Notes: generated by a model from the letters alone, not told the origin. Positions 12,801 to 31,261 are shown, counted from the first letter of the stretch. The stretch is DNA of 64,000 nucleotides from Parcubacteria group bacterium Gr01-1014_8 (GCA_007376385.1 VMGC01000001.1:343898-407897), one strand, 5' to 3'. Made by a program: numbers and translations.

Positions 12801-13991
12801 ATGAAAAGGTCCACAGTGCTTTACGCCGTGTCCGCTCTTGTTATTGGAGGTTTTCTTGCGTACTGGTTTGTTCCTCTCGGGCCTGCATATTCTGAAGCAA
12901 ATACCATCGCGGATGGAGCATCAAATTTTAAAGAGCTCGCGGCGCGCTTCGGCGATCTCGCTCGCGAAAAGGGAGGAGCATATGCATTCGAGGTGTTGAA
13001 ACGCGCTGAATTGCCGCCGAATACTGACCTGCATTTGTTGGGACATGAGGTCGGAAACATTCTATACGAACAGAAAGGTGTCGATGGTATTGCGGATTGC
13101 ACGCAGGATTTTAGAAACGCCTGCTCGCATGCAATTGTTATCGGCGCTTTGAATGAGTTCGGCGGTGAGGCTGCATTACCTCTCATAAGCGATGCGTGCA
13201 AAAAGGCTCCAGGCGGAAGCGGAGCGTACACGATGTGTTATCACGGACTTGGCCATGGCGTGTTCGCGTTCTACAGCTATGACCTTTCAAAAACCGCTGA
13301 ATTTTGCAGAAAGACCGGGACTCCCGAATACCACGAACGAGAATATGTTGAATGCGTCGGAGGTTCGGTGATGGAATTGATGGGAGGAGGCGGGCATGAT
13401 AGGGAGGCGTGGCTTGCGGCGAGGGAGAAATATCTCGACCCGCATTCACCGCTCTCGCCGTGTATGGACAGCGCTGTGCCGGAAAGAGCGAAAATAATGT
13501 GCCTTACATATCTGACACCTCGTCTGTGGGAATTAGCAGGTATTGATATGGGAAACCCCTCACCTCATATGTTTGCAACTGCGTTCTCGTATTGCGATGC
13601 GATCCCTCGCTCTCGCCCAGAACTTCGCGGTGCCTGCTACGGAGGGTTTGGCAAAGAATTCTTTCCGCTCGTAGCCTCGCGCGATATTCGCGATGATGTA
13701 TCGTATTCAGACAGGCAACTCTCTACCGTCATCGATTGGTGCAGTTTTGCAGGGGATGTCGAAGGAACGTATGCGTGTGTGGGGGATGCGGTTGCGTCCG
13801 CATTCTGGGGTGGGGAGAAAGATCCGAAAACAGCGTTTAGGCTCTGCGGCGCAGCAGATGGAACGTTGCAAGATGCATGTTTCGAACGACTCGCCGATGA
13901 AGTGACGATGTATATGCGAGGAGCAGAGAAAGATGAGCTATGCGCGCAGATCCCCGCACGTCTCGAGACCAAATGTTCAAAAAGTAGTTAG
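12801..13991 (+). CDS. Membrane-anchored Cys/His-rich repeat protein, family member 1 (motifs CSHAIVIG, CYHGLGHGV, CYGGFGKEF)
   Basis: N-terminal TM 'LYAVSALVIGGFLAYWFVPL'. Periodic Cys-x2-(H/G)-G-x-G-(H) repeats. Paralogous to 8 other ORFs in 13-31 kb. Confidence 0.65.
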   Translation: MKRSTVLYAVSALVIGGFLAYWFVPLGPAYSEANTIADGASNFKELAARFGDLAREKGGAYAFEVLKRAELPPNTDLHLLGHEVGNILYEQKGVDGIADCTQDFRNACSHAIVIGALNEFGGEAALPLISDACKKAPGGSGAYTMCYHGLGHGVFAFYSYDLSKTAEFCRKTGTPEYHEREYVECVGGSVMELMGGGGHDREAWLAAREKYLDPHSPLSPCMDSAVPERAKIMCLTYLTPRLWELAGIDMGNPSPHMFATAFSYCDAIPRSRPELRGACYGGFGKEFFPLVASRDIRDDVSYSDRQLSTVIDWCSFAGDVEGTYACVGDAVASAFWGGEKDPKTAFRLCGAADGTLQDACFERLADEVTMYMRGAEKDELCAQIPARLETKCSKSS

Positions 13992-13992
13992 T

Positions 13993-15036
13993 ATGCGGTT
14001 TCTGATGTGGATGGGCGGAGGAGTGCTTGCCGCTCTTTTTTCGTTTTTCCTGTTCCATTCATTGTATGCTGGGGGCGATCTATTCGTGCCGCATGAGTAC
14101 GCACCATTCGAAGAACAACGTGCGTATTGGCAACATCTCATCGAAAAAGAAGGTGCCGAAAACGCTCTCACTGCATTTTCTGTCCGAGTCGGATCATTAT
14201 CTCTGAATACGCAGCATCAATTGGCTCACTCGTTCGGCGCTGCGCTTTTCCAGGCGGAAGGTATTGGTGGCATTTTCATATGCGATGCGCGATATTCGTT
14301 TGGTTGTTTCCATCAGTTCTTAGGAGATGCGATACAGGCGCTTGGTATCGAGCGTGTTCCGGATCTGAACACACGTTGCTTTGATGCGTCATCCGTAAGT
14401 CCCATTTCTTGTACGCACGGCATTGGTCACGGGGTCCTCGCCTCGCTTGGGTATGATGATATAGCTCTCCAAAAAGGGCTCGAGATATGCAAAGGTCTGC
14501 CGGGAACGGAGCCCATTGGAGGATGTTATGGAGGCATTTTTATGGAATACAACGTACGCACAATGCTCGCAGAGCAGGCGACGGTACGAGAGTACGAAGG
14601 AAATGTGTATGCGCCATGCGATTCGCTTGCGGCTGAATTTGTTCAAGGTTGCATATATTGGCAGCCACAATGGTGGCTTGTGACAGTGCTTGATGGGGTC
14701 TCTTCGGAAAAAGCGTATGCGAAAATGGGTTCATATTGCCGAGAATTCGCAAAAACACCGGAGTTATTGCGTGCATGTTTTGAAGGCTTGGGAAATATTG
14801 TCGAAGATGAGGCGGAGTATGAGCCATTGCAGGCGCGGAGGCTTTGTGACGCCGCAGGCGCGGGTACTCTGAGCAGCGTATATTGTCGCTCCGTCGGCGC
14901 GAATCATTTTGGCATTGATGGCGGGGAAGATCAGGCTGTGTTGGTGTGCGAAGATCTTCAAGGAGACAAGAGAGCATATTGTATGGCGTATGCAAAAAAT
15001 GAGATAGGCCTCGCGCCGGAATTACGTGAATTATGA
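13993..15036 (+). CDS. Membrane-anchored Cys/His-rich repeat protein, family member 2 (CFHQFLGD, CTHGIGHGV, CYGGIFME)
   Basis: Start taken at the internal Met 'MRFLMWMGGGVLAALFSFFLF' right after the upstream stop. The listed ORF begins at 13933 overlapping the previous gene. Confidence 0.6.
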   Translation: MRFLMWMGGGVLAALFSFFLFHSLYAGGDLFVPHEYAPFEEQRAYWQHLIEKEGAENALTAFSVRVGSLSLNTQHQLAHSFGAALFQAEGIGGIFICDARYSFGCFHQFLGDAIQALGIERVPDLNTRCFDASSVSPISCTHGIGHGVLASLGYDDIALQKGLEICKGLPGTEPIGGCYGGIFMEYNVRTMLAEQATVREYEGNVYAPCDSLAAEFVQGCIYWQPQWWLVTVLDGVSSEKAYAKMGSYCREFAKTPELLRACFEGLGNIVEDEAEYEPLQARRLCDAAGAGTLSSVYCRSVGANHFGIDGGEDQAVLVCEDLQGDKRAYCMAYAKNEIGLAPELREL

Positions 15037-16166
15037 ACCGTTTATTTCTCGTAGTAATTGTGTTTATAGCGTTCGCTTTTATGGGATGGCAGGTGTGGGG
15101 CGATGTGGACCCATTTGCTGAGTGTACCGGAGTCCATCGCAACGAATGTCTGGGCGCTGTCCTCAAAGAGATGGCAGATGTGCAGGGGATCGCGGCTGCG
15201 TTCGAGTCATTTACAGAACTTTACGACGAGCCGGATTTCACGAAAGATTGCCATCCAATAGTGCACGAAATGGGAAAAGGCGCATATGAGCGGTACAAAC
15301 GAGGAAAACCACTCGAGGCGGTTCATGAACTTTCCTATTGCAGCTACGGTTTTTATCACGGATTTTTGGAAGCCATGGTACCGGATACTGGAGACCCCAA
15401 AAAGGCTCGTGAGTTGTGCGATAAGTTACAAGATGGCGTGACGGACGGCAGATCAGTTATCGGTCCTTGTCTTCATGGTTTTGGTCATGGGGTGACAGAC
15501 GGCACGAGGCCAGAGCGTTGGGGGAGTTTTGAGACCATGTCTGAGCCTTCGCTCGAGATATGTTCGTCTATCGCGCGACGTGATGATGAAAAAATGCTCT
15601 GTGCAGGCGGAGTTTTCAACGCGATCTCTATCATGTCGCTTTACAAGAAAAATGGGCTTGTCATTGATAAGGTGCATCCATACGCTCCGTGCGAGAAGCA
15701 AACAGATGTGCGTGTCCGTGAGGCTTGCTTTCGGAATTTTCACCCGACAGTTTCTCATATAAATCATGAGCATTTTTTGCTTGCAGCGCACCAGGTTGAG
15801 GCATTAGAGAAGGATGCGGATGCAATTCCCGCGATGGAGAACCTTGCGATCTATCAGTCAAGGAGGATGACCGAAGAATACACGGACCCATATATCGCTG
15901 CCTTTTGTCATCGAGTCCAGCCGCGGTTGCAGAACATGTGCGTAGAAGGTTTCGCGGTAGGTTTTCTTATCTTTGGCACACCAGGCGAAGAATATGAACG
16001 CGCTCTCACGTTCTGTCAGAATACCGAACTTCGCGGTGAACACGAGGAGCATTGCCTCAGACGAGTCATACAGTCTTCGAAGCAGCAATATTCAAGGGAC
16101 GTGTATAAAAAAGTATGCATGAAAGTTCCGAGAGCGTTTCAGTACCTTTGCGAAGAACCCGCGTAA
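15033..16166 (+). CDS. Membrane-anchored Cys/His-rich repeat protein, family member 3 (CSYGFYHGF, CLHGFGHGV)
   Basis: N-terminal TM 'LFLVVIVFIAFAFMGWQVW'. Family motifs. 4-nt overlap with the upstream gene. Confidence 0.65.
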   Translation: MNRLFLVVIVFIAFAFMGWQVWGDVDPFAECTGVHRNECLGAVLKEMADVQGIAAAFESFTELYDEPDFTKDCHPIVHEMGKGAYERYKRGKPLEAVHELSYCSYGFYHGFLEAMVPDTGDPKKARELCDKLQDGVTDGRSVIGPCLHGFGHGVTDGTRPERWGSFETMSEPSLEICSSIARRDDEKMLCAGGVFNAISIMSLYKKNGLVIDKVHPYAPCEKQTDVRVREACFRNFHPTVSHINHEHFLLAAHQVEALEKDADAIPAMENLAIYQSRRMTEEYTDPYIAAFCHRVQPRLQNMCVEGFAVGFLIFGTPGEEYERALTFCQNTELRGEHEEHCLRRVIQSSKQQYSRDVYKKVCMKVPRAFQYLCEEPA

Positions 16167-16230
16167 AGAACCCTGCGACAGAAAGCGTGGGGCGTTCTCG
16201 GCGAGTCCGGTAAAGTACGTTCATTCATTT

Positions 16231-17739
16231 TCATCGGACTTCCAACAACCATGACAGTGCGTTATTCGCGTACGCGTCGCATGCGTCTAGCTCTTCGAAT
16301 CCAAGAGCCTTGCAAATGACGTCGTTCTTGAAGCCCGCAAATTCACGCCAGTGTGTCGCACGCATAAAAAGAGCTCCTAGAAGGCAATTTTGTTGGTCGT
16401 TCGATCCTGGGCCCATCTGACATTTTTCTACTACTTCTGAGTCAGTGAGATTCAGCCATGGGAGAGCGGTGTTGAATCCGATGCCAGTGAAGCACTTATC
16501 CCTGAATCGTGATGGGGCGCGGAGGCATCCCTTGATCGACTCTTCGCTGAAATAACCAGGGCTCCAAACGGTGGATTGATTCAAGTAACAGATCTCAAGC
16601 ATTGGATCGTCTCCAGCAAGTTCGAGGGCATCGCACGGAAAATCAGGCCGTGTTTTATCGAGCCATGTTGTCGTATGTCCGCGTACGCCGAATCCAAGGG
16701 TGACGAATACATTTTCCATGAATGCGCCGTGATAGCACATCTTTTTCCCACGTTCGTACGTGACAAGATCGCGGCACTTTTGCAGCGACAAGGGAAGGTC
16801 ATAATTGTGATACACCATGAGCCCATGGCCGATGACGTGCTCGCAGAAGATGCCTCGCAGCGAGTCAGCATTCTCTTTTAAACACCCCGCCGCATACTTT
16901 TTTACGGTCTCATCGTCTCCGACATTTCCAAGTGATGATTCGATGACACCGTGGTAAAAACCGAATTGGCATCTTGTGTCTATCATCTGTTCATCGAGTA
17001 TTGAGAGGCCGTTCAGCGCGTATGCGATACGGCCTAAAAAGTGTGCCTCCGAATGACACTCTCCCACCGCTACCTGCGAACCTGGATTATCCGGACGCTG
17101 TGAAGGATCCATCGAATCCTTGACCAGTTCATCGAGCATTTTTTCGTATCCGAACACGCGCATCCAATATTCGAGTTCAGCGTCAGTCCTGCTCACCTCT
17201 ATCATATTCAATTTTTCCAACACCGATACTCCAGATCTCGGAAAAAATCTGAAATAGAAATGCATCAGCGACGCATGAAATTTTCGAGCAGGAGATAGCG
17301 CCCCATAACGAGGCAGCTCGGATGGATCTCCGCTCCCCGAATCCTTGACTAGTACCGTACCTGAACGTTCCGGGTCCATGTGGTCATGAAAATTCCACGT
17401 TCCTGCTTGTTTGAATTTAAAGCGGAATGATGCGTCTTGCAGCAGTTCGTGGCAAGAATCGAATCCTTTATACGCGTCAGTGCCGCACTCACGGATATCC
17501 GACCCGGGATATTGTGTATGCGTGGGATGTACGTCAGATGCAATCCAATGAGGTTCGGTGTCTTCATTCACGAAAAGGACGCTTTCTCCTTGGACTATCT
17601 CAACCTGCGACGGTTCAAAACCGCTCGCCGTCATGCGAATCGTAGTGTATGTAGTTTCTGCCGAGAGTGTCTGCGGCAGTGCGCAAAGAATTGATAGCAG
17701 GACGAGAGATGCGTTGGAAGCTGCTGTTTTTTTTGTCAT
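16231..17739 (-). CDS. Secreted protein with an N-terminal cupredoxin-like His-cluster domain followed by the Cys/His-rich repeat domain, family member 4 (CQFGFYHGV, CEHVIGHGL, CYHGAFMEN)
   Basis: Signal peptide 'LVLLSILCALPQTLSA'. N-terminal domain '…VHPTHTQYPG…WNFHDHMDPERSGTVLV' is alignable to ORF 26769..27161 and the N-terminus of 28447..29997. Confidence 0.65.
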   Translation of the reverse strand: MTKKTAASNASLVLLSILCALPQTLSAETTYTTIRMTASGFEPSQVEIVQGESVLFVNEDTEPHWIASDVHPTHTQYPGSDIRECGTDAYKGFDSCHELLQDASFRFKFKQAGTWNFHDHMDPERSGTVLVKDSGSGDPSELPRYGALSPARKFHASLMHFYFRFFPRSGVSVLEKLNMIEVSRTDAELEYWMRVFGYEKMLDELVKDSMDPSQRPDNPGSQVAVGECHSEAHFLGRIAYALNGLSILDEQMIDTRCQFGFYHGVIESSLGNVGDDETVKKYAAGCLKENADSLRGIFCEHVIGHGLMVYHNYDLPLSLQKCRDLVTYERGKKMCYHGAFMENVFVTLGFGVRGHTTTWLDKTRPDFPCDALELAGDDPMLEICYLNQSTVWSPGYFSEESIKGCLRAPSRFRDKCFTGIGFNTALPWLNLTDSEVVEKCQMGPGSNDQQNCLLGALFMRATHWREFAGFKNDVICKALGFEELDACDAYANNALSWLLEVR

Positions 17740-17767
17740 CGAACCCTAGTATAGCGGAAGAAGTTTT

Positions 17768-19348
17768 TCAGGCTACTTCGCGTTTTCTGATGATGAGGAA
17801 CACGATCGAGAGGATGGGAAGTATGAGCACATATTCTCCTAGAAGTGAGTACAGGGTTTTCGTGTCTTTGAGCGGCACTGATGCTGCGAGTATAGAAGGA
17901 GCTGAGTCAGAGCGCATCTCCACTTTTCCGCGGTTTGTGACGATGGAAGATGCCAGCCCGTTTCCTGCGATAGCTATGTAGCGATCATTTTCGACCGCAC
18001 GTACCTTTCCTAGGGAAAGTACGAGGTTGTCTACCAGATGCGATCCATGGAACCACGCCTGTCCGGCTGGATTTACGAATACCCGTGCTCCGCCCTGGGC
18101 AAGTTTCTGGTACAGATTTGGCGAGAGAATATCCGAACAGAAAAGCGCTCCGACTTCTGTTCCGTTGATATGTGCAGGGAACAGTTTTGTTCCTGAAGCA
18201 ACGGAACGTTCCCTCATTGTGCTCTGCTCTGCATCAGACACACCAATAAGGCGGAGCAGCATGGCAAAGAGCCAGGGCGTATATTCTCCCTGTGGCACCA
18301 AGAATATCTTCCGGTATGTTTCAGGCATCAAGGTGCCGTTTTCGTACATACGCATCTGGACGTATCTTTCAGAACCCGTTCTCACCGGACCTGAGTCAAT
18401 GAATGTAACGGCGTGATCGGGAAAAACTAACTTCGCGAATTCAGTCGGGTCTTCGTTACTATGAACGAAAAAATCTGTCGCTTCCGGAAAGACAATGATA
18501 TCCGGCGGCTCATTTTCTTTTGCCCATATTCGTATGTATTCTGCGACTTCGCGTGCATGTTTTCGCTTGACCTCTAACGAATACAGCGAGGTGACAGGCA
18601 TGCTTGTTGAAACGAGTGCGACACGCACCGATCCAGATTCATTTTGAAAAGTCCAACTCGGAAGAGAATAGGCTCTATCAAGAGCCGCAAGAGTCAACGC
18701 TCCGGAGAGGATAAGTGCGAACACGAGCCCTCGTTTTCTCGCGTTTTCATACTGAAAAATTACGTGATACAGAGAAAAGCCGAGAAAGACCGCAAGAAAG
18801 GTCAGTATGTATATGCCGCCAATGGAAGCGGATCGAAGAAAAGGAGAAAAATTAGTAAGAGAATATCCGAGCATCGTAGGTGAGAAGTGCGGGCCGGAAA
18901 ATGAAAGGTCGCGTGCTGTGAGTATGGCAAATCCCCACATTTGCGCGTATTGCAATACTGTCCAAAGAGAAGCGGCAAGCAGTGCGGCATAGAAACCTGA
19001 GCGCTTGGATCGGACAAAGCCAGCCGCAAAGAGTGAGAAAAAGACGGCGAGGACGAGAGTGACCATGAGCCATGAGAACCCTACGAATATGATCCCTTTC
19101 CACGGAGGAGAACCAGTCCAGTCGAGTGGCAACACGTCCCAGAACCATGCTATGGCAGTACCGCTGTAGGCAAAGCCAAAGAGAAGTCCAAGTATTGACG
19201 CATCTCGGTATTGTTTCTCTTGCAGGCGGTGCAATACGTGAGCGAAGGGAATGAGTCCGAATACGGATACCAGCCATATGGACGGGAACAGTATTCCCGA
19301 TGCAGCGATAACGCCTGAGAATATTGCAAGCAAACCAAAGACTACCAT
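17768..19348 (-). CDS. lnt: Apolipoprotein N-acyltransferase-like protein (N-terminal polytopic membrane domain plus C-terminal CN-hydrolase/nitrilase domain)
   Basis: Multiple N-terminal TM helices. CN-hydrolase signature with Glu in 'IIVFPEATDF' and Cys in 'GALFCSDILSP'. About 526 aa, typical of Lnt. Confidence 0.6.
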   Translation of the reverse strand: MVVFGLLAIFSGVIAASGILFPSIWLVSVFGLIPFAHVLHRLQEKQYRDASILGLLFGFAYSGTAIAWFWDVLPLDWTGSPPWKGIIFVGFSWLMVTLVLAVFFSLFAAGFVRSKRSGFYAALLAASLWTVLQYAQMWGFAILTARDLSFSGPHFSPTMLGYSLTNFSPFLRSASIGGIYILTFLAVFLGFSLYHVIFQYENARKRGLVFALILSGALTLAALDRAYSLPSWTFQNESGSVRVALVSTSMPVTSLYSLEVKRKHAREVAEYIRIWAKENEPPDIIVFPEATDFFVHSNEDPTEFAKLVFPDHAVTFIDSGPVRTGSERYVQMRMYENGTLMPETYRKIFLVPQGEYTPWLFAMLLRLIGVSDAEQSTMRERSVASGTKLFPAHINGTEVGALFCSDILSPNLYQKLAQGGARVFVNPAGQAWFHGSHLVDNLVLSLGKVRAVENDRYIAIAGNGLASSIVTNRGKVEMRSDSAPSILAASVPLKDTKTLYSLLGEYVLILPILSIVFLIIRKREVA

Positions 19349-20217
19349 CGTAAAGATCCGCGATAATCAGCGAGTCGGATGGAAAAGACGATATGCAGGA
19401 TCGCCCAGATATAAAAGAAGAGCGGAGGGAATACATACGCGAGTACGATAGAACCCCACGCGGTATATGCAAATAGCGCATACAGAGCAAAAACAATGGC
19501 ATGGATCGCAAGCATATCCTTCACATATGCACTTTGACGGTCAGGCTTGCTTCCGAATCGAAAATAAAAGTGCACGTACCAGCATACGTAATGCAGCAGA
19601 ATGACCGAGCCGGTGAGTTTTGTCGATGAAACTTGAATGTCAAAAAACCACAACGCAAATAGTCCTGCGGTGATAAGCAAAAGATACGCACTCAGTGCAT
19701 CAGGACGGTATGTTCCGATCGCAATGCTCGCGACATAGGGAACTAGCAACACGATCGCGAGCATGACAAGAGACGAAGAGAATGTGGCTCCCAACATATA
19801 TCTTGAGATAAGAGCTGTGAAAAGAAGCACTGGCGGCAACTGTTCAAGAGCGCGAGAGAGAGAACGTTCCTTCCCGAAGAGCGTCACTTCATCCTGAAAA
19901 TGATGTATGAAAAACACTACAGAAGCGACGAGAGCAAACCATGCTACTTGATCCGTTAGAATGGCAAGTGTGAACAGTGCAGTTGTAAGAGTAACGAATG
20001 CAGCGACCCACGTCATCGTCATCTTACCGGCTTTCCATTGGTAGTAGTATGCCCCGAGAAAATGACCTTGGCCGAAGATACTGAATGCGAGTCCGACCTG
20101 CAGGGGAGAAAGGTAGTAAACCGCAAGCGCGACAATGGCGAGGCCAAGCGATTTTTGTATGACCAATTCACGTGTCATAGTAGAAGTATGGTAGCACATA
20201 CTGGCATATGAAATCAC
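19342..20217 (-). CDS. Polytopic integral membrane protein (8-9 predicted TM helices), function unknown
   Basis: Highly hydrophobic helices throughout. Overlaps lnt-like by 7 nt. The true start may be an internal Met (e.g. at 20178). Confidence 0.45.
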   Translation of the reverse strand: MISYASMCYHTSTMTRELVIQKSLGLAIVALAVYYLSPLQVGLAFSIFGQGHFLGAYYYQWKAGKMTMTWVAAFVTLTTALFTLAILTDQVAWFALVASVVFFIHHFQDEVTLFGKERSLSRALEQLPPVLLFTALISRYMLGATFSSSLVMLAIVLLVPYVASIAIGTYRPDALSAYLLLITAGLFALWFFDIQVSSTKLTGSVILLHYVCWYVHFYFRFGSKPDRQSAYVKDMLAIHAIVFALYALFAYTAWGSIVLAYVFPPLFFYIWAILHIVFSIRLADYRGSLRW

Positions 20218-21407: not shown

Positions 21408-21433
21408 ACACTATTTACTCAATTGTTGGCACA

Positions 21434-22549: not shown

Positions 22550-22563
22550 CTGGAGGGTCCCTT

Positions 22564-23004: not shown

Positions 23005-23420
23005 GATCCTATACGTTTGGTGATGGTTATGTCCGTAGCGCGGAGCGTCCCCATTGTCTGCAGGTCTCTATTCACGCGTACGGTTGCTCCGGGCGGTAAG
23101 GGGATCATTTTTCCTATTATGAATCTCTTCTCTTCCATGATACCCGCTCTGAACACATATTCTACAGATGACCACCTCGTGGCGTCATCGTATACGAATT
23201 CTACTGTAACTCGCGGTTCTGCAATCGAGTAGCTACTCAGAGTTGAAACACGAAGCACGTGATCGGCGAGACGGTGATCAGTTACGATCCCATAATATGT
23301 ACGCTCAGCATGCATTCCGTCTCGTGGTAGTGTAGGCATGAAAACATTAACGCCGAAAGACAATACGTATCCGCAGGCTCCCCCAAGAATTATCGGCAGC
23401 GCGTATCTTAGGGCGATATG
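23001..23420 (-). CDS. Small secreted protein, unknown function (start trimmed to internal Met 'MHIALRYALPIILGGACGYVLSF')
   Basis: The listed ORF 23001..23618 extends 5' through a repeat element. The signal-peptide-like Met at 23420 is a more plausible start. Confidence 0.35.
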   Translation of the reverse strand, partial: HIALRYALPIILGGACGYVLSFGVNVFMPTLPRDGMHAERTYYGIVTDHRLADHVLRVSTLSSYSIAEPRVTVEFVYDDATRWSSVEYVFRAGIMEEKRFIIGKMIPLPPGATVRVNRDLQTMGTLRATDITITKRIGS

Positions 23421-23446
23421 CATCGAGTAATTATAGCTCGTAGTAA

Positions 23447-23600
23447 AGGTTCCTCGGAGCAAGCTCCGAGGTATTATGGAGCTCGCTTCGCTCGCGCAGT
23501 CTCGCAGCAGAGCTGCGAGATATTGAACCTGTGTTTGCTCCTCGGCTCGGAAATGCAAAAGTGCTCTTTTGCGTTTCTCTCGCAACGCTCGCAAATAAAG
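23447..23600. repeat. MITE-like intergenic hairpin repeat, copy A (reverse orientation relative to copy B at 28385). Contains palindromes cctcggagc…gctccgagg and gaaatgc(a)aaag…cttttgcgtttc, plus a ~50-nt palindromic insertion.
   Basis: The reverse complements of 23447-23475 and 23525-23569 match 28420-28448 and 28389-28418 near-exactly. Confidence 0.6.
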
Positions 23601-23674
23601 CGCATGAGGGCGACCCATTTATGCGTATCGTTCTTCGCATCGTATTTGCTTGACATAGGCGTGCAGAATATGAT

Positions 23675-25285
23675 GTGCACAACATGCAACGCATCAGTGC
23701 TTTATTGCTGGTACTTGTACTCGGCTCTTATGCAATGTATTACGCCATTCCGGAGGACGTATCCAACGTATCATGTGATAACTGCAATCTTGTGATCATC
23801 ACGTTGGATAGCGTGAGGTTGGATCACATGGCTTTGTATGGTTATGAACGCTCGACAACCCCGAACATCGACAACTTCGGACAGGGCGCGTTGGTATTCA
23901 CTAATTATTTTTCGACGAGTTATTTGACGCCTGTTAGTGCATTTTCAATGCTCACTGGCAGATATCCTTTCAGCAATGGCGTCGTCAGTTTTTATTCATA
24001 TTTGCGCGACGATGTTACTTCACTTGCGGAGACCCTACAGGCGGAGGGGTATCGTGCTGCGGCGTTCGGTTCTTCTCCAGAGTACGAACTCTTTCCTTCA
24101 CTCAAAGAAAGCGGGATGCGAGGTTTCGATGTGTATAAAACTTTTACGTCTGATGATCCAGATATATTGCCCAGTCGTTCGCAGGTTCCAGTAGAGGAAG
24201 CAATTGCCTGGGCCGAAGATTCTTCGCAGCCGTTTTTTTTATGGATGCCGATCGGCGCTGCGCACTGGCCATATGATCCATTTGAAGAACGAACTTTTAC
24301 CGATGCAGGTTACGACGGGTTTCTGCGGAATTTACCTTCCGGTTTTAAGACCTATAGTCAGATATATAAGGGGACATATTATCCGATACGTGAGGGGACA
24401 ATGCCGAATGTCCGCCAGTCTCTGCATCTGCCGGAATATTCTTCCCGACATACCGAAGAGGTCGATCTGCTCCTTGAGTGGGGACCATCTGCAACTACCT
24501 CATTGAATGCGGAGGACCTTGAATACGTTCGAGGTCGCTACGACGACGGACTGCTATTCATGGATCGCATCGTCGGCGACATAATTGCAACTCTCGAAGA
24601 AAAACATTTGGATCGGGATACCATCATAATTATTGAATCGGTGCATGGTGAAGAATTGGGCGAGCGCGGTGTCATTGGGCACTATGATATTGATGAAGCA
24701 ACGATACGAAGTCCGTTGATGATCAAGGTGCCTGGAGCGCGTTCGCGCCGCATCGACGCTCTTATCTCTGGAGTCGACATCTATCCGACCGCGCTAAGTA
24801 TGTTGGGAATCGATATGGCTATGCGCGATGGGATAGACTTTGTACCATTTCTTTCCGGAGTGACCTCAACAGAACCTCGGCAAGAAGTATTCCTTACGCG
24901 CACGCCACTTTTCGAGACGCTCTATACGGTCGAAGGGGATAGCATGACATCTGCTCGTTACGAGCGATTGCGCTCTGAGGATGCGCGCATGCATTATCAC
25001 GATAGCGCGATCCGTACGAACGAATGGAAGCTCATTCATCGCACTAGCAGAGTGGCGTTGTCACGTTATTCATGGTGGCAGTATCTCACTGGGAATATTG
25101 AAAATATCCCAGAATACGAGCTGTATTTTCTTCTTGACGATCCTCTTGAGACAACGAATCTGTATAACGAGCGTCCTGACATTGCGACGCCATTGCAGGA
25201 GCGCTTGAGCGCGTGGGAGAATACGCAGGCGAGTGATCGCAATCTATTAAAAATGCAAGATACGATACGGCAGGAATACTTTTAA
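23675..25285 (+). CDS. Sulfatase-fold (alkaline phosphatase superfamily, PF00884-like) membrane-anchored enzyme with Thr at the nucleophile position
   Basis: N-terminal TM. 'CNLVIITLDSVRLDH' metal-binding N-terminal motif. 'LTPVSAFSMLTGRYP' aligns to the sulfatase C(T/S)PSRAALLTGRYP signature with Thr replacing Cys/Ser. 'ESVHGEELGERGVIGHYD' C-terminal motif. Confidence 0.65.
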   Translation: MHNMQRISALLLVLVLGSYAMYYAIPEDVSNVSCDNCNLVIITLDSVRLDHMALYGYERSTTPNIDNFGQGALVFTNYFSTSYLTPVSAFSMLTGRYPFSNGVVSFYSYLRDDVTSLAETLQAEGYRAAAFGSSPEYELFPSLKESGMRGFDVYKTFTSDDPDILPSRSQVPVEEAIAWAEDSSQPFFLWMPIGAAHWPYDPFEERTFTDAGYDGFLRNLPSGFKTYSQIYKGTYYPIREGTMPNVRQSLHLPEYSSRHTEEVDLLLEWGPSATTSLNAEDLEYVRGRYDDGLLFMDRIVGDIIATLEEKHLDRDTIIIIESVHGEELGERGVIGHYDIDEATIRSPLMIKVPGARSRRIDALISGVDIYPTALSMLGIDMAMRDGIDFVPFLSGVTSTEPRQEVFLTRTPLFETLYTVEGDSMTSARYERLRSEDARMHYHDSAIRTNEWKLIHRTSRVALSRYSWWQYLTGNIENIPEYELYFLLDDPLETTNLYNERPDIATPLQERLSAWENTQASDRNLLKMQDTIRQEYF

Positions 25286-25293
25286 ATGATCTT

Positions 25294-26715
25294 ATGATGT
25301 TGCTCTTTCCATCTAAAAAACATGCATTTGTTGTGGTGGGGTGTATCGTGATGCTCGCGGTCGCGACATTTTTCATACTTCGAGGAGGAGACGATCTCTC
25401 GTGCAGAGAGTGTAATGTAATTATCATTGGCGTCGACACACTCCGGGCGGACGCGTTGCATAGTCTTGGATATGAGCGTGAGACCACTCCGACCCTTGAT
25501 GCGCTCGCCAATAAAGGTGTCATTTTCTCACAGGCAATCTCTGCATCGAGCTGGACGGTGCCATCATTCATGTCGATCTTTACGGGTATGTATCCCTCGG
25601 CGCACAAGGTGACAAATAAATTCGTAAAATTTTCAAAAGACGCGAAGATACTCACAAATCTTAAAGATATTGATCCTGAGATCGAAACGTTCGCGATGAT
25701 CATGAAGAACGCAGGCTACGCAACCGGAGGCTTTACGGGGGATGCAGGAGTCTCAGCACAGTTCGGATACGGACAGGGGTATGATATATATACCGACGAA
25801 AAAACCTTCGGCGGATTTGAGAATAGCGAGCAACATGCCTTGAAATGGCTGGATACTCTGGACTCCAAACAAAAGTTCTTTATGTTCTTCCATGGTTATG
25901 ATCTGCATGGGCAACATGATCTAGATGACGATTCGTCCAGGGAATTTGTTCCTGAATATTCAGGGACGTACAAAGGCACGAAAGAAGAAGAGGCAATTAT
26001 CCGTGAACAGCAACTGGAATGGGGAGGATTGTCACTCACGCCGGGGGACGTAGCATTCTGGCGGGGCATATATGACAGCAAGATCAAAGACGCAGATACG
26101 CGGCTTGCCAGTTTTATCGCGGAACTCGAAAAGAGGGGTCTTCTCAAAAATACGGTCATAGTTTTAGTGTCTGACCACGGAGAAGAGTTTTATGAACATA
26201 AAGGCATTGATCACGGACACTCTTTATATGATGAACAGGTTCATGTGCCTTTGATACTCATCGTTCCGGGTATGACCGGCGGAAGAAGGGTCGATGCGCA
26301 AGTAAGTACAATGGATATCGCTCCTTCAATTCTCGATATCCTCAACATCGCACCGAGCGCAGCTTTCGAAGAACAAACCGCTTTGAGACGCAGTCTTGTG
26401 CCGTATATTCTTGGATTGGAATTTCGCGGGTACGATATTTTTACCGAGACGGATTATCGCAACTCACGGCATCTTCGTTCAGTGCGTACCGCAGACGGGT
26501 GGAAGTACATACTCGATCTCGAAAGTAAACACGAAGAGCTTTATGACCTTCGCAATGATCCAGGTGAGTTAAAGGATTTAGCATCGAGCGAGGTAAAAAA
26601 GCGTGACGAGACTAGAAGAAGACTTCTCACTCACATGCGGGATGAACTTCATCAGACTTTGGATCAAGAAATACGCACTGATTGTCTCCCGGTATATGTT
26701 GGAGAGTGCGAGTAG
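25294..26715 (+). CDS. Sulfatase-fold (alkaline phosphatase superfamily) membrane-anchored enzyme, paralog with Thr at the nucleophile position
   Basis: N-terminal TM. 'CNVIIIGVDTLRAD'. 'SSWTVPSFMSIFTGMYP'. 'SDHGEEFYEHKGIDHGHSLYDEQVHVPLILIVPG'. Confidence 0.65.
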   Translation: MMLLFPSKKHAFVVVGCIVMLAVATFFILRGGDDLSCRECNVIIIGVDTLRADALHSLGYERETTPTLDALANKGVIFSQAISASSWTVPSFMSIFTGMYPSAHKVTNKFVKFSKDAKILTNLKDIDPEIETFAMIMKNAGYATGGFTGDAGVSAQFGYGQGYDIYTDEKTFGGFENSEQHALKWLDTLDSKQKFFMFFHGYDLHGQHDLDDDSSREFVPEYSGTYKGTKEEEAIIREQQLEWGGLSLTPGDVAFWRGIYDSKIKDADTRLASFIAELEKRGLLKNTVIVLVSDHGEEFYEHKGIDHGHSLYDEQVHVPLILIVPGMTGGRRVDAQVSTMDIAPSILDILNIAPSAAFEEQTALRRSLVPYILGLEFRGYDIFTETDYRNSRHLRSVRTADGWKYILDLESKHEELYDLRNDPGELKDLASSEVKKRDETRRRLLTHMRDELHQTLDQEIRTDCLPVYVGECE

Positions 26716-26768
26716 TACTATCGATAGGGAAAATATATCTATTATCTGACAGATGATACTATGCGTTC

Positions 26769-27161
26769 ATGCGAGGGACGCAGGTTTTCGATAATATGTC
26801 GCTGACATATATTCTTGTTTCCGTACTCCTCTTTGTATTGGTAGTAACTTCTGTTCTGTATCTAAAGAAAGGGGATGTCCAGGATGTAAGGAAGCAAATT
26901 ATTCTTGAGCAACAAGGATTTCAGCCGAGTGAGCTCACTGTCAAAAAAGGAAGCACGGTAACATTCACTACGACCGCCGCGCGACAGTTCTGGCCGGCTT
27001 CAAATTTGCATCCAAGTCATGACATCTATCCTGATTTTGACGCGAAGCGGCCTCTTGAGAGCGATGAAGTATGGAGCTTCACTTTCAATACAGCAGGCGA
27101 TTGGCCATTTCATGATCACATCCGATCATACTATGTTGGTGTCGTACACGTAATCGAGTAA
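26769..27161 (+). CDS. Small membrane-anchored cupredoxin-like domain protein with a conserved His cluster (HPSH…FHDH)
   Basis: N-terminal TM. 'GFQPSELTVKKGSTVTFTTT…WPASNLHPSHDIYP…WPFHDHIRSYYVGVVHV'. Homologous to the N-terminal domains of ORFs 16231..17739 and 28447..29997. Confidence 0.55.
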   Translation: MRGTQVFDNMSLTYILVSVLLFVLVVTSVLYLKKGDVQDVRKQIILEQQGFQPSELTVKKGSTVTFTTTAARQFWPASNLHPSHDIYPDFDAKRPLESDEVWSFTFNTAGDWPFHDHIRSYYVGVVHVIE

Positions 27162-27175
27162 AGTGGAAGCTGTAT

Positions 27176-28375
27176 ATGCGTTTGTATATGAAGATAAGTG
27201 TCCTCTCAGCATTCTTGTTTGTGGGGCTCGCAGTGTTTTTCTTTATGCCGGGTACTCGGATGGCGCGCGCGGCAGAGGCCTGTTCCACCGGGCACGAAAA
27301 ACAAGATGAGCAGATACAATGCTGGCTCGATATCATGCGTGCGGAAATGAGAGATGATGGAATAGGAGCCGCAATGAAGGTCTTTTCGTACGTATACAAC
27401 ACGTACCCCACATTCTCAGCTACAGGCTGTCATGTGCACGCGCATCGCGTGGGCGATATGGCGTATTATGAATTTTATCTTGCGAATCCTGATCTTGATG
27501 CTCTGGAATTTCCGCAAGAGACGGCAAGTTGCGGGTATGGCTTCTATCACGGCTTTTTCGAGCATCTTATTCAGGATAATCCCGATCCGTCATACATAAC
27601 GTCCACATGCACATATTTTCATGAGCGGCTCGGGCACATGCTCGGCGACATGAGACAGATCTGCTATCACGGGAGCGGGCATGGACTTATGCTTGCGAGA
27701 ACAGAAGAAGTAACGAACGATGATTGGGGGAATGCACAGGCGTTCGCAACAAAGCCGCTCGAACAGTGCGAGAAACTTTCTGAGGCGACAGTGCGTGAAA
27801 AAGAAGAATGTCGTGAGGGGATCTATAATGTGCTTGTTGATTGGATGGAGGGGAAAGAGTATGGATTTGTCTACAACGACATCCACCCGTTCGCAGTTTG
27901 CGATGAGCTTCAAAATTACGATTGGAAAAAGGCATGTTACTACGAAATGTCCCAGAAATTGGACCGAGTATCGGCACGTGACCCTGTGCAGCTTGTCAAA
28001 ATTATTGCTCCGATACAGGACCCGAAATTACAACGCACCGCATTGTTGGTAGGTATCGCGGGAATGATGCAGTCAGTTGCAAACACCAATGCGTACGAAT
28101 CCTTCATGCGTACGTGTGCGCAATTGGGCGAGAAGTCCAGGAACGACTGTGCCATCGGCGTCATTTCCGGGCTCTTCGAGCACGGGCTTCCTCAGGAAGA
28201 GTATGTGAATGCCATACGCGCATGTCGTCTCGAGGAAATTGGATCATCCGGGATGGCTGCTTCGTGCTGGAAAGAGGTTTCGAATAAATTAATACGTTTT
28301 TATACCCCCCAGCGTGTGCAAGAGATCTGTCCAGAATTTCCAGAGGAATACCGATCTCTGTGCAGCAAGAAATGA
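27176..28375 (+). CDS. Membrane-anchored Cys/His-rich repeat protein, family member 7 (CHVHAHRVG, CGYGFYHGF, CYHGSGHGL)
   Basis: Signal/TM 'ISVLSAFLFVGLAVFFFMPG'. Family motifs. Confidence 0.65.
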   Translation: MRLYMKISVLSAFLFVGLAVFFFMPGTRMARAAEACSTGHEKQDEQIQCWLDIMRAEMRDDGIGAAMKVFSYVYNTYPTFSATGCHVHAHRVGDMAYYEFYLANPDLDALEFPQETASCGYGFYHGFFEHLIQDNPDPSYITSTCTYFHERLGHMLGDMRQICYHGSGHGLMLARTEEVTNDDWGNAQAFATKPLEQCEKLSEATVREKEECREGIYNVLVDWMEGKEYGFVYNDIHPFAVCDELQNYDWKKACYYEMSQKLDRVSARDPVQLVKIIAPIQDPKLQRTALLVGIAGMMQSVANTNAYESFMRTCAQLGEKSRNDCAIGVISGLFEHGLPQEEYVNAIRACRLEEIGSSGMAASCWKEVSNKLIRFYTPQRVQEICPEFPEEYRSLCSKK

Positions 28376-28384
28376 AGAGCCTCT

Positions 28385-28590
28385 TTTATTTCCGAGCCGA
28401 GGAGCAAACACAGGTTCAATACCTCGGAGCTTGCTCCGAGGAACCTTTATCTGTCGAGGATAGCAAGCGAAATGCGAAAGTGCAGGTTTCGCATTTCCGA
28501 GCGACACAGACAGCAAAGGTTCAAAGCCCCGCGGCTTGCCTGCCTGTGCGATGCACGCAGACAGGCCGCGGAATTTGGGACGCATAACCC
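28385..28590. repeat. MITE-like intergenic hairpin repeat, copy B (ttccgagccgaggagcaaacacaggttc + tacctcggagcttgctccgaggaacc + gaaatgcgaaagtgcaggtttcgcatttc hairpin)
   Basis: Matches the reverse complement of copy A at 23447-23600. Lies between convergent genes 27176..28375 and 28447..29997 and overlaps the 3' end of the latter ORF. Confidence 0.6.
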
Positions 28591-29997
28591 TTCAACAAGC
28601 TGCGGGTCGGATGCCTTTGCAAATACGAGCACGATCTTTTGGCACTGCAGAAGCTCTTGCTCTAACGTAAATTGGCCGCAAAATGCAATGGAGTGCCGTG
28701 CGCCCTTTTCAGGTGTCTCACGATGGAAGAAACCCGACACAACGCCGAGAATGCATGCTGCCCATTCTTCTTGATCCATGAGTTGACTGCACTCTTTTGC
28801 CAGATGCGTGAATTCTGGCTCACCGACGCGGCGCCGTACCTCGTCATTTATAAGCGCTTGCATTGATTCGAGCCGTGCTGCCTTTACGGGTATCTGTCTT
28901 AGTAACGAGAAACCGTCTTCAAGTGAGTATTTGTTGTGGCGGATGTATCCGACACCGATCTCTATGGCGCATCCCGTCCAATATTCTGGCACTGCCCTGC
29001 AAACACCGAGGGGATCGTCATGCCTGAACGAGATCCCGTATTCACCGGAACCAAGAGCTATTGAGAGCGAATTGAATACGCCGGAAGCACACCGTGTTCT
29101 TTCCCACTCTGGTTGAATTGCGCTCTCGCATGAGAGGAGTGCGCTTTTCGCCATTTTGTATTCGTCACCCCACTTGGTTGAATCAATAGAGTCGAACAGT
29201 GCATGTCCGATGCCGTGATAACACGCGCCGACAGCATTGTGCCGTGATGTTGGCGTTCCTAGATGTGTGCTATCTCGCATCTTTTCGCAGTAGGCAACGG
29301 TTTGAGCGACTCCCTCATCTCCTGTGTCGCGAAGGGCTTGTTCCATGAATCCATGATAGAAACCGAAATTGCAATACGTGGTTTCTATCCTGTCAGCGAC
29401 AGCGCCTCCGGCTTTGTATAGTTGATATGTCTGTATGCCGATATAGTGCGAAACGTCGTGACAATTTCTCTGAAATAACGGATCCTCAGCATTCCACTTT
29501 TCGAAAGCGTCGAACACTGCGTCGAGTCCTCCTTTCTTAAGAATACGGTCTATTTCACCGTCCCAGCAGTAGGCTTTTATTGTGTCGGTCGAGGAGTCGA
29601 GACATGCTTCGACACTTTCTCCTTCATATCCTAGGACGATAATTCTTCCCTGCACCATTGGGTGCATATGATCGTGGAATGGCCAGACCCCTGCACGCGA
29701 AAAAGTAAATTCCCATGGATCACCGGGCTGAATCGCGTGTGTTGGGTCGAAATCCGAATAGCGTCCATGGGACGGATGAGAATCCGACGCAGGCCACGAA
29801 TCTGATATCGATGAATTAACGAAGATGACCGTGTCACCTTTGTTGATAGTAAGCCTCTCAGGCGAGAATCCGGTATTGGTTCTTGTGATGGTGTATGTCT
29901 GCGGAGAAAGATATGCGTATGCCATTCCTGCAAGAACCGCGACAGCAAGAAAAATAACTGCCAAAAGCTTAACAGAAAGAGAAAAATGCGCGCGCAT
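28447..29997 (-). CDS. Secreted protein with an N-terminal cupredoxin-like His-cluster domain plus the Cys/His-rich repeat domain, family member 8 (CNFGFYHGF, CYHGIGHAL)
   Basis: Signal peptide 'LLAVIFLAVAVLAGMAYA'. '…WPASDSHPSHGRYSDFDP…WPFHDHMHPMVQGRIIVLG'. The C-terminal ~45 codons read through the repeat element, so the true stop may be earlier. Confidence 0.6.
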   Translation of the reverse strand: MRAHFSLSVKLLAVIFLAVAVLAGMAYAYLSPQTYTITRTNTGFSPERLTINKGDTVIFVNSSISDSWPASDSHPSHGRYSDFDPTHAIQPGDPWEFTFSRAGVWPFHDHMHPMVQGRIIVLGYEGESVEACLDSSTDTIKAYCWDGEIDRILKKGGLDAVFDAFEKWNAEDPLFQRNCHDVSHYIGIQTYQLYKAGGAVADRIETTYCNFGFYHGFMEQALRDTGDEGVAQTVAYCEKMRDSTHLGTPTSRHNAVGACYHGIGHALFDSIDSTKWGDEYKMAKSALLSCESAIQPEWERTRCASGVFNSLSIALGSGEYGISFRHDDPLGVCRAVPEYWTGCAIEIGVGYIRHNKYSLEDGFSLLRQIPVKAARLESMQALINDEVRRRVGEPEFTHLAKECSQLMDQEEWAACILGVVSGFFHRETPEKGARHSIAFCGQFTLEQELLQCQKIVLVFAKASDPQLVEGLCVPNSAACLRASHRQASRGALNLCCLCRSEMRNLHFRISLAILDR

Positions 29998-30085
29998 ATG
30001 CCCCTAGTATACGATGCCCGTTCAGGTTGTTTTTTAACGACTCTTGGGGCAGAATGGCATCCTCGTGGGGTAGCGCCCTTGCTTT

Positions 30086-31261
30086 ATGAAGTTCAGACTG
30101 AGTGTCTATATATGGCCTATTATCGCTGCGGCAGCGTTGCTCGGGGGCGCCTTTTTCTACGTTAATTTTTCCTCGCGTGCTGAAGCTGCAGCCATAGTCG
30201 AAACATGTAAAAAGGAGCCAGACAACATGTTCTGTTACGAACGCGAAGTGCCGAAGCTGTATTCTTCTTACTCGATCCCGGAACTATTTGAATTCATCCG
30301 CGAGATCCGTCGTCTCGATCCGTCGTATCAGTTTTGCCATGTACTTGCGCATAAGCTCGGCGAAGAGGCCGTTGCAGAAGACCCGTCGCGCTGGCTGGAT
30401 ATGATCCCTCTGAACCCGCGTGATGGAATGTGCAGCAACGGATTCATTCATGGCGTCATCGTAGGCAGGTTTCGCAATGACACGCTCGACAAGGAAACGC
30501 TCGAGAAAACGATACCTGATCTTGCGAGGGCGTGCGAACCGCGGGCGAACTGGTCTCCCAGTTCGTTGGACCAAGCGATTTGCTATCACGGCATGGGCCA
30601 CCTTTTTATGTTCATAACGAACGCTGACATGCGGCTCTCGCTGGATACGTGCGCACGCATATCGCGAAGTGCAACTGGGGATTTTATGCGCGTCTGCCGA
30701 GAAGGCGTATTCATGCAAACATATCAGCCGCTTGAGCCGGACGATTTTGCTCTGCTAGAATTACTTCCTGAAAAACCGACGAAAGAAAATTACCGGCGCT
30801 TATGCGCAGCGTACGCGAACGATCCAGAAGAAGGAGCGTGTCTTCGGGAAGCGTGGCCGTTCTTCCGCACCGACATTCTTAAAGGAACTGGTGCCATCAG
30901 TTTTTGCTCAGGACAACCAACCAAGGAGGAGGAAGAGATGTGCTACGAATCGGCTTCAACTATCATAGGAAGACAGCTTCTCGGGAACGATGAAAAAGCA
31001 AGTGCGGCGTGTGATGCTCTTCCTCAGAAATGGCAGAGCATATGCTACATTGCGGCTGCTCAAGCACTGCTGGAAGAAGATAGGGCGACGGGGAAGGCTG
31101 CAATTTCTCTCTGCGAGAGAGGAAAGAATGGTGTTGCTGATACCTGCTTAAAGACACTTGCGATGCGAGCAAACTGGATATTTTCAAGCGGTGCAGCGGA
31201 AAAGGACGCATTTTGCGAGGCATTGCCGCGATTCAAGGAGGAGTGCGATCGGCGGCGCTAA
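30086..31261 (+). CDS. Membrane-anchored Cys/His-rich repeat protein, family member 9 (CHVLAHKLG, CSNGFIHGV, CYHGMGHLF)
   Basis: TM 'VYIWPIIAAAALLGGAFFYV'. Family motifs. Confidence 0.65.
   Translation: MKFRLSVYIWPIIAAAALLGGAFFYVNFSSRAEAAAIVETCKKEPDNMFCYEREVPKLYSSYSIPELFEFIREIRRLDPSYQFCHVLAHKLGEEAVAEDPSRWLDMIPLNPRDGMCSNGFIHGVIVGRFRNDTLDKETLEKTIPDLARACEPRANWSPSSLDQAICYHGMGHLFMFITNADMRLSLDTCARISRSATGDFMRVCREGVFMQTYQPLEPDDFALLELLPEKPTKENYRRLCAAYANDPEEGACLREAWPFFRTDILKGTGAISFCSGQPTKEEEEMCYESASTIIGRQLLGNDEKASAACDALPQKWQSICYIAAAQALLEEDRATGKAAISLCERGKNGVADTCLKTLAMRANWIFSSGAAEKDAFCEALPRFKEECDRRR

Follow-up and report, generated by a model that had tools for sequence, protein, structure and literature searches.

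We report here the analysis of nine paralogous genes that form an array in a 64-kb stretch of DNA (the window) from Parcubacteria group bacterium Gr01-1014_8, a groundwater genome of the Candidate Phyla Radiation (CPR). The genes, named F1 to F9 in their 5' to 3' order in the window, occupy about 11 kb and encode a family of predicted exported proteins with five nearly invariant histidines, pairwise conserved cysteines and an alpha-solenoid body. This family is linked, both genetically and physically, to a cupredoxin fold in which the type-1 copper site is replaced by a set of four His and one Asp. With moderate confidence we favour an extracytoplasmic metal centre that would be shared between, or relayed across, the solenoid and the cupredoxin modules. 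Copper would be the most likely metal, a choice in which our confidence is lower than in the reading as a whole.

Nine paralogs of one family

An earlier note on this DNA, made from the sequence alone, had listed nine open reading frames (ORFs) with a common Cys/His-rich architecture, and all of them are present (Table 1). In a nine-way alignment the paralogs are 18-24% identical to F1, the residue numbering of which is used throughout, and about 18-25% identical among themselves. All-against-all BLASTP connects all nine paralogs as a single family (E-values down to 1e-30), and a family hidden Markov model (HMM) run against the six-frame translation of the window recovered exactly these nine. 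Sixteen columns are invariant across the alignment, namely H78, H82, G85, H110, C133, C146, H148, G151, H152, C169, C185, G188, C234, C314, C349 and C360. The C-x-H-G-x-G-H motif described earlier is invariant in all nine proteins and its longer form, C-x-H-G-x-G-H-G, is encoded inside the stretch of F1 that holds the five His codons, while the first of the earlier motifs has to be redrawn as H-x3-H-x2-G and not H-x3-G.

Each protein contains a single hydrophobic segment (residues ~1-25) preceded by one or two Lys/Arg residues, and none elsewhere. In F4 a classical L-S-A|E cleavage context is seen. For all nine proteins these topology signals predict an N-in, C-out anchor or a signal peptide, in support of the earlier proposal that the Cys-rich domain lies outside the cell.

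The author of the earlier note could not place the C-x-H-G-x-G-H proteins in any family, and our searches lead to the same result. No family was found for the Cys/His solenoid body of any of the nine paralogs in Pfam and NCBIfam, a profile search of all PDB sequences gave nothing better than E 0.2 for it, and a description of the family was not found in literature searches. The solenoid body fails every membership test run and we rate it as a categorically new protein family, with the caveat that unannotated families are common in CPR genomes.

Predicted fold of the body

The AlphaFold2 model of F1, built on a 78-sequence alignment, has a mean predicted local distance difference test score (pLDDT) of 95.5 and a predicted template modelling score (pTM) of 0.89. 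It consists of an N-terminal helix followed by ~20 helices and contains no strands. As modelled, the body is an open alpha-solenoid without a specific natural relative among solved structures. The alpha/alpha-toroid for which the earlier note had proposed to look did not emerge, and no LanC-like, glycosidase-like or other toroid enzyme is found among the structural matches of the F1 model. De novo designed and generic ARM/HEAT-like alpha-solenoids were matched over about one third of the domain with TM-scores of at most 0.27, which is an architectural likeness only; these matches are cytoplasmic or synthetic and have neither Cys staples nor a His site, whereas the family has the His site together with the putative staples. 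The ~40-residue repeats of the earlier note correspond to a structural periodicity of helix-Cys-loop-Cys-helix hairpins and not to sequence repeats: seven hairpin units compared profile against profile gave no significant match (best P 5e-4, probability 13%).

HcpA, HcpB and HcpC, the Sel1-like-repeat 'Helicobacter cysteine-rich proteins', are secreted proteins of helical-hairpin repeats in which a Cys pair staples the helices of each repeat, and they form multigene families in small genomes. The proteins of the array resemble them as hairpin proteins that are predicted to be secreted, carry probable stapling Cys pairs and occur as multigene families. In contrast to Hcp, the family has Cys spacings of 11-16 residues, no repeat consensus, an invariant five-His site and a cupredoxin partner. 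None of the nine proteins matches Sel1 (PF08238) or TPR at E<=1, the repeated Sel1 motif of 36-44 residues is absent and no similarity to the solved Sel1/Hcp solenoids was found, and membership in Sel1/Hcp was rejected. The profile match to Sel1/TPR or to a known toroid that could have accounted for the repeats was not found.

A faint resemblance of the 'CHG' element to the zinc site of LanC-like cyclases had also been pointed out. Fold, topology and ligand behaviour all speak against it. There is no match to Pfam LANC_like, the model is an open solenoid and not a seven-repeat toroid, and a predicted extracytoplasmic location, paired Cys and a five-His ligand set stand against the cytoplasmic Cys-Cys-His zinc site of the cyclases.

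The five-histidine site

Conservation was analysed on 716 distinct domains from the window, related loci and database proteins, aligned to the family HMM. The five His form a conserved site, as had been expected, with H78 at 99.6%, H82 at 98.2%, H110 at 98.5%, H148 at 98.1% and H152 at 98.5%. They are flanked by conserved Gly residues (G151 and G188 99%, G85 89%, G149 86%). Besides these His, the Cys and the Gly, no column of Asp, Glu, Tyr, Arg or Lys reaches 80%; the nearest is position 192, located after a conserved G-x-F-M motif, where E, N, Q and D together make up 97%.

All five His are present in 697 of the 716 domains. Among the 19 deviants, 13 have lost at least two and 11 at least three of them, while the four core Cys are kept in all but one of the 19. 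Because triple losses would be practically absent if each site were lost independently at a rate of 0.4-1.8%, the five His act as a unit that is separable from the scaffold. Mean-field direct coupling analysis (DCA) points in the same direction, with the pairs 82-148, 82-152, 82-110, 110-148, 110-152, 78-110 and 78-152 among its top 80 couplings. From two i/i+4 His pairs and a single His that lie on three glycine-packed neighbouring helices, we infer an arrangement that looks like a helical metal site. On these sequence patterns, the five-His site is presumably metal-binding.

Two known kinds of His site were considered and rejected. A metzincin-like H-E-x-x-H-x-x-G peptidase does not fit, the Glu position being occupied by L, V, D, G or S and the third His being missing. 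The H-x3-H...H spacing is, we assume, similar to that of type-3 copper proteins, which have six His (2 x 3) on a four-helix bundle; with five and not six invariant His, no Pfam match to Tyrosinase or Hemocyanin and neither tyrosinase nor hemocyanin among the top structural matches, a type-3 binuclear copper protein was not accepted.

Paired cysteines

C133, C146, C169 and C185 are conserved at ~100%, and the pairs C221/C234, C314/C326 and C349/C360 at 95-99.7%. The variable Cys are gained and lost pairwise, with phi values of 0.99 for 77-106, 0.83 for 381-392, 0.79 for 265-279 and 0.78 for 349-360; co-presence of one N-terminal Cys pair gives a phi of 0.90. The pair 77-106 is also the top coupling in the DCA, and 102-108, 314-326, 349-360 and 265-279 are within its top 35. 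Downstream of the anchor the number of Cys is even in 618 of the 716 domains (86%). Six Cys pairs of the F1 model are found at equal register, with one Cys close to where a helix ends and its partner 5-7 residues inside the helix that follows. Co-presence, coupling and even counts agree with the earlier idea that the Cys act as structural pairs. Since they behave pairwise and are predicted to lie outside the cell, the Cys are very probably structural disulfide staples that would form 5-8 bonds.

A minor rival, to which we give a very low probability, is that the paired Cys store metal as two-coordinate Cu(I)/thiolate sites, as helical copper storage proteins lined with Cys do. Even parity and pairwise gain and loss would follow from two-Cys metal sites as well, and the association with a copper-protein fold fits this idea. 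Many CPR bacteria also inhabit anoxic groundwater, a setting in which disulfides may not form. However, each pair bridges the end of one helix to the start of the next with a register offset of +3 to +5 in six hairpins, and such a constant register is typical of staples in secreted repeat proteins. The Cys are spaced by 11-16 residues and do not form C-x-x-C or C-x3-C arrays facing a bundle core, and the most conserved feature of the family is the His set and not extra thiolates. Disulfide staples remain our preferred explanation of the Cys pairs.

A cupredoxin-like partner with altered ligands

As the earlier note had it, two family members (F4 and F8) are fused to a cupredoxin-like domain and a third such domain is free-standing, encoded just upstream of F7. 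Cupredoxin_1 scores 27.9 bits in F4 and 32.1 bits in F8 against a Pfam cutoff of 27; the free-standing protein, which shows similarity to amicyanin, stays below this cutoff with 21.5 bits (E 2.4e-4). The fold is a cupredoxin beta-sandwich, with profile matches to amicyanin (3.5e-7) and to the C-terminal cupredoxin of NirK (1.2e-7).

The ligands are different. Alignment of 114 cupredoxin-like domains reveals the invariant stretches W-P-A-S-x2-H-P-x-H, F-D and G-x-W-x-[YF]-H-D-H, which are also present in the free-standing protein (the last as W-x-F-H-D-H), and the invariant residues H45, H48, H79, D80 and H81. No column contains more than 18% Cys or more than 30% Met. An Asp is aligned onto the Cys ligand of amicyanin, and one type-1 His position is kept while the second His and the Met are not. 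The module therefore shares its fold with the type-1 cupredoxins (plastocyanin, amicyanin, Cupredoxin_1) but carries four invariant His, in H-P-x-H and H-D-H, instead of the His-Cys-His-Met set, and with the Cys and Met ligands gone a type-1 electron carrier was rejected. Cupredoxins and plastocyanin of Patescibacteria have been proposed as electron donors to NirK (PMC5581439, PMC12931201). Because Asp replaces the Cys ligand and Met is not conserved, neither the 'plastocyanin' label nor this role is simply transferable to the module described here.

The G-x-W-x-[YF]-H-D-H stretch aligns locally with W-Y-H-x-H / Y-H-C-H of laccases, ascorbate oxidase and NirK domain 1. In multicopper oxidases and NirK (copper nitrite reductase), copper at the interface between domains is bound by the His on either side of the central residue. 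The present proteins resemble them in that the model packs the cupredoxin domain rigidly against another domain that carries His. They differ from them in having one cupredoxin domain, an alpha-solenoid as its partner, no type-1 Cys and two of the four H-x-H motifs. No Pfam Cu-oxidase family is matched and the alignment to motif 2 of the multicopper oxidases is only local, and membership in the multicopper oxidases or NirK was rejected as well.

For the association of the two modules we examined 81 related loci, non-redundant and none longer than 21 kb, which were recovered with a deeper family alignment. A cupredoxin-like domain is fused or adjacent in 57 of them, and nine of ten sampled family representatives of ~500 residues contain it, so that the suspected cupredoxin link is both real and general. 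Of 111 cupredoxin-like copies, 64 share an ORF with a family domain. A family gene on the same strand is found at a distance of no more than 300 nt from 29 of the 47 free copies. The free-standing gene upstream of F7 is effectively the split form of the fusion. In the AlphaFold model of the F8 fusion (pLDDT 90.9, pTM 0.87) the linker has a pLDDT above 90 and a tail is of low confidence; on this model the fusion is a single rigid body.

Unbiased clustering of all ORFs in the loci, which was used to find recurrent neighbours, brought up a protein of ~180 residues that occurs once per locus in 34 of the 81 loci (L012:14013-14564, L015:14801-15352 and 32 others). Its signal peptide ends in ...A|H, and the protein further contains the motifs H-x-x-G-x-S-x-E and D-I-G-Y, a beta-rich immunoglobulin-like (Ig-like) body and a C-terminal transmembrane anchor; no family was found for it in Pfam, NCBIfam or PDB. 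Its sole invariant residue is the His predicted to be the mature N-terminus, which presumably recalls the histidine-brace copper proteins. By this analogy, the neighbour may be a histidine-brace-type metal protein and a further hint of copper.

Proposed function

We propose that the family proteins would be exported, held by (or cleaved after) their N-terminal helix, and folded outside the cell as an open alpha-solenoid whose helix hairpins would be stapled by 5-8 disulfide bonds. Three neighbouring helices near the N-terminal end would present H-x3-H, H and H-x3-H, with small Gly residues permitting their close packing, and the five His would form one metal centre. This centre may work with a special cupredoxin-fold domain stripped of the type-1 Cys and Met, either placed between the anchor and the solenoid (F4 and F8) or encoded next door (before F7). 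The role would most likely be a redox or metal-binding reaction at the cell surface. Through the variable C-terminal part of its solenoid, each ancient paralog could be specific for a different partner or substrate. Metal handling, one of the two roles offered in the earlier note, is still our preferred guess.

Several observations weigh against such a shared metal centre. Within the window, seven family proteins lack a cupredoxin domain, F4 and F8 being the exceptions, and about 30% of the related loci show no cupredoxin-like domain within 10 kb. The window contains no copper transporter, copper chaperone, NirK or multicopper oxidase, and the ~180-residue neighbour with the N-terminal His is missing from it. 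His-only sites would also fit Zn, Ni or Fe. The His-His signal in the DCA comes from the 19 deviant sequences and indicates functional coupling, not necessarily contact, and a part of the Cys co-variation tracks two major clades and is hence phylogenetically confounded.

A different explanation, which we consider unlikely, is that the proteins are non-enzymatic surface scaffolds or adhesins through which these episymbionts bind host or envelope ligands, with the expansion of the array reflecting diversification of binding and the His holding a structural ion (e.g. Zn) or none. The generic alpha-solenoid fold is typical of binding proteins, loci differ in copy number (1 to 10), the C-terminal half is far less conserved than the N-terminal His region, and copies exist that keep the scaffold without the His. 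Giant surface proteins, Ig-like surface proteins and a glycine-rich trio (described below) are found beside the arrays. However, conservation of the His at 98-99.6% in proteins that are ~20% identical, together with their co-loss, is the signature of a functional centre and not of a variable binding face, and a pure adhesin would not readily account for the repeated fusion to a His-rich cupredoxin fold.

The metal-centre reading could also be taken further, in a form that we regard as decidedly unlikely: the five His of the solenoid and the four of the cupredoxin domain would together build an interdomain, all-histidine multi-copper (or mixed-metal) centre of a surface oxidoreductase class unique to CPR. 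Such an enzyme might reduce O2 or reactive oxygen species, or exchange electrons with a host or a mineral. The nine paralogs would then be substrate-specialised versions, in bacteria thought to lack respiratory chains.

Neighbouring genes

The features of the array and its surroundings are listed in Table 1. A scan for promoters and terminators of the region found fewer promoter-like sites than in shuffled sequences, and mostly intragenic terminator-like sites.

Table 1. Coordinates of the family genes, the free-standing cupredoxin-like gene and other neighbouring genes in the window
Feature	Coordinates	Strand	Basis and remarks
F1, 396 aa	12801..13991	+	ORF and alignment; N-terminal anchor, 5 invariant His, 8 Cys pairs
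Five-His codons of F1	13032..13256	+	H78 (13032-13034), H82, H110, H148, H152 (13254-13256)
F2, 347 aa	13993..15036	+	Start 2 nt past the F1 stop; orthologs <=50% identical
F3, 377 aa	15033..16166	+	4-nt overlap with the F2 stop; nearest relative elsewhere 61% identical
F4, 502 aa	16231..17739	-	Signal peptide, cupredoxin-like domain (~nt 17335-17658), then solenoid; nearest relative elsewhere 55% identical
F5, 399 aa	20208..21407	+	ORF, alignment, family HMM, BLASTP
F6, 371 aa	21434..22549	+	ORF, alignment, family HMM, BLASTP
F7, 399 aa	27176..28375	+	ORF, alignment, family HMM, BLASTP; orthologs <=50% identical
F8, 516-aa ORF	28447..29997	-	Anchor, cupredoxin-like domain (~nt 29629-29907), then solenoid
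F9, 391 aa	30086..31261	+	Orthologs <=61% identical, in 25 loci
Free-standing His-rich cupredoxin-like protein, 130 aa	26769..27161	+	N-terminal anchor; 15 nt upstream of F7
Apolipoprotein N-acyltransferase (Lnt)	17768..19348	-	LNT_N PF20154 and CN_hydrolase PF00795
Polytopic membrane protein, 291 aa	19342..20217	-	No Pfam or NCBIfam match
Two membrane-anchored sulfatase-fold (alkaline-phosphatase superfamily) enzymes	23675-25285, 25294-26715	+	PF00884, E 3.5e-42 and 6.2e-46
Glycine-rich trio, overlapping genes	10144-10707, 10688-12028, 12019-12750	+	Just upstream of the array

The earlier note had correctly described two sulfatase-fold genes with a Thr nucleophile, an Lnt-like gene and a polytopic gene within the array, and had joined them with the family into a single extracytoplasmic system. 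Lnt scores 143.6 bits with TIGR00546, above the cutoff of 132.9. Alignment to the sulfatase 4upi and the sequences themselves show that the sulfatase-fold pair has W-T-V-P-S-F and L-T-P-V-S-A in place of C/S-x-P-x-R, with Thr for Cys/Ser and no Arg. It is the joint system that does not stand: sulfatase-fold genes accompany the family in 5, Lnt in 3 and the polytopic gene in 2 of the 81 loci, and a complete Kaiserbacteria genome has two family genes at the same chromosomal site with no sulfatase-fold, Lnt or polytopic gene. Since they are rarely found with the family elsewhere, these genes are bystanders in the window genome, and a single system was rejected.

The same counts bear on the possibility that the family proteins are metal-independent lyases or hydrolases acting on envelope or host polymers, with the His as acid/base in a solenoid groove and with Lnt and the phosphotransferase-like enzymes in the same envelope-remodelling pathway, as in the second suggestion of the earlier note. 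This would agree with the interleaving of the family genes with Lnt and the two sulfatase-fold enzymes in the window, with a giant homolog that joins seven family domains to a GH3 glycosidase domain, and with the polar residue at position 192. On the other side stand the rarity of these neighbours in other loci, the lack of any Asp, Glu, Tyr, Arg or Lys column at 80% and the fact that neither a lyase nor a hydrolase is among the top structural matches of the F1 model, and we judge an envelope enzyme of this kind to be very unlikely. The metal centre proposed above is preferred.

The glycine-rich trio is a more conserved neighbour than the sulfatase or Lnt genes and recurs, usually as three genes, in 24-28 of the 81 loci. 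Its members have in common a C-terminal domain of ~120 residues ('GSGTFVIDHPLDPKN..LYHSFVESPDVKN.YDG...WQVTGIR'). The middle gene encodes a long Gly-rich region with a weak match to Gly_rich_2, and no other family was found for the trio. An 18-nt tandem repeat of three or more copies (12124-12189, +) encodes Y-Y-S-Q-S-T near the N-terminus of the protein that starts at 12019.

Giant surface proteins are also recurrent upstream of the arrays, with Laminin_G_3/DUF7483 in locus L001. In the window, a 2,941-aa ORF runs from its start (31-8856, +) and is followed by a 349-aa ORF (8849-9898, +), neither with a Pfam match. Two further neighbours without a Pfam match are found outside the window only: a secreted protein of ~560 residues in 13 loci, often duplicated, and an anchored protein of ~435 residues with a Cys-rich C-terminus in 17 loci (example sites of these neighbours are L003:12811-16200, -, and L015:15369-17051, -). 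Downstream of the array, the window encodes a type IV pilin-like protein (N_methyl and T2SSG; 39088-39630, +) and a protein with an SLT_2 lytic-transglycosylase domain (44136-45599, +), which sit among genes for transketolase, a PfkB kinase and ribosomal protein L25.

A repeated non-coding element of ~70-120 nt is present at gene boundaries in the block, in inverted orientation (23444-23561, +; 28381-28449, -). It contains the hairpin CTCG(G/C)AGC-loop-GCT(C/G)CGAG, of which the window has three against 0 expected, and one copy shows a compensatory C:G to G:C change. No family was found for the element in Rfam.

The 3' end of F8 (28447-28580, -) lies beside a copy of this element. The protein is identical to the database protein P0126 up to '...PQLVEGLC' and then diverges. 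The tail of P0126 is a family-typical C-x10-C, 'GKIDAQEHIPECSNQSSY', which is encoded in no frame of the window, while the last ~45 codons of F8 read into the hairpin element and have an AlphaFold pLDDT of 51-72. The F8 tail may have arisen by a genuine insertion or replacement at the 3' end of the gene; otherwise it reflects a difference in assembly.

Distribution and origin of the array

An exhaustive profile search over 1.84 billion cluster representatives (50% identity clusters) found 7,227 representatives of the family at E<=1e-3, a number that falls to 2,335 at E<=1e-30. Single proteins contain as many as seven domains. A word-indexed search gave 970 matches, all of them unnamed or 'hypothetical'; where public names are given, they read 'hypothetical protein', 'plastocyanin' or 'cupredoxin domain-containing protein'. 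All 80 of 80 loci from species-representative genomes belong to metagenome-assembled genomes of Patescibacteria/CPR, a few of which bear automated labels such as 'Gammaproteobacteria'. They include Kaiserbacteria, Nomurabacteria, Adlerbacteria, Yanofskybacteria, Colwellbacteria, Sungbacteria, Daviesbacteria and Microgenomates. Among the data searched, the family was found only in Patescibacteria/CPR.

The 81 related loci contain 1-10 family domains each, with a median of about 5. F1, which belongs to the most conserved subfamily, is identical (100%) to protein G01um10148_341 of Parcubacteria group bacterium Gr01-1014_8 and has orthologs of 50-68% identity. For F2, the ATG at 13993 matches the family N-terminus better than a longer start at 13933. 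Neighbouring subfamilies are sometimes fused elsewhere, as in the database protein P0001, in which an F1-type and an F2-type domain form one polypeptide. Giant metagenomic proteins, P0121 (3580 aa) and P0122-P0125, carry 4-7 tandem family domains each; P0121 has seven, together with a Glyco_hydro_3 N-terminal domain (GH3) and LRV/HEAT repeats at its C-terminus. Some internal copies in the giant proteins are without three of the five His (pattern HRRYH). These multi-domain proteins are true fusions or gene-calling read-throughs.

Every window paralog is closer to relatives in other genomes (29-67% identity) than to any other member of the array (18-25%), and because of this the nine are taken to be ancient, separately maintained subfamilies. 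Pseudogene decay of one ancestral gene, which the earlier note had named as a possible refutation, is therefore excluded; the nine ORFs are intact, each has its own orthologs and all 16 invariant residues are kept. The description of the block as an island does not hold either. Base composition is flat across the block, which contains no tRNA, integrase or transposase gene, and both flanks are syntenic with relatives. In the complete Kaiserbacteria genome (859 kb), the two family copies are in tandem between a signal peptidase gene and an Ig-like/GAPDH/RpiB flank, and the same flank is present downstream of the window array (genes at 31287, 32494 and 33464). Given the flat composition and the syntenic flanks, the array has expanded at a conserved chromosomal site and was not inserted, and a mobile island was rejected. 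Dense local paralogy and the altered 3' end of F8 next to a repeated hairpin element would suit decaying or unexpressed duplicates, or a recently arrived island. Both are already contradicted by the intact ORFs with closer orthologs elsewhere and by the shorter arrays at the same site in relatives, and we assign them a nearly negligible probability.

Implications

CPR/Patescibacteria make up a large share of bacterial diversity, with genomes of ~1 Mb or less, and their surface biology is mostly unknown. The present family comprises at least 7,227 sequence clusters that are annotated only as 'hypothetical' or, misleadingly, as 'plastocyanin'. Even with a mundane function it merits a domain model, and its members are cleanly recognised by the five-His/Cys-pair signature. 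Should the metal site prove real, the family would be a new class of extracytoplasmic metalloproteins, and the assumption that single-domain 'cupredoxins' of Patescibacteria are plastocyanin-like carriers to NirK would have to be revised. It would also offer an expressible, soluble ectodomain as a target for the study of redox or metal chemistry at the surface of episymbionts.

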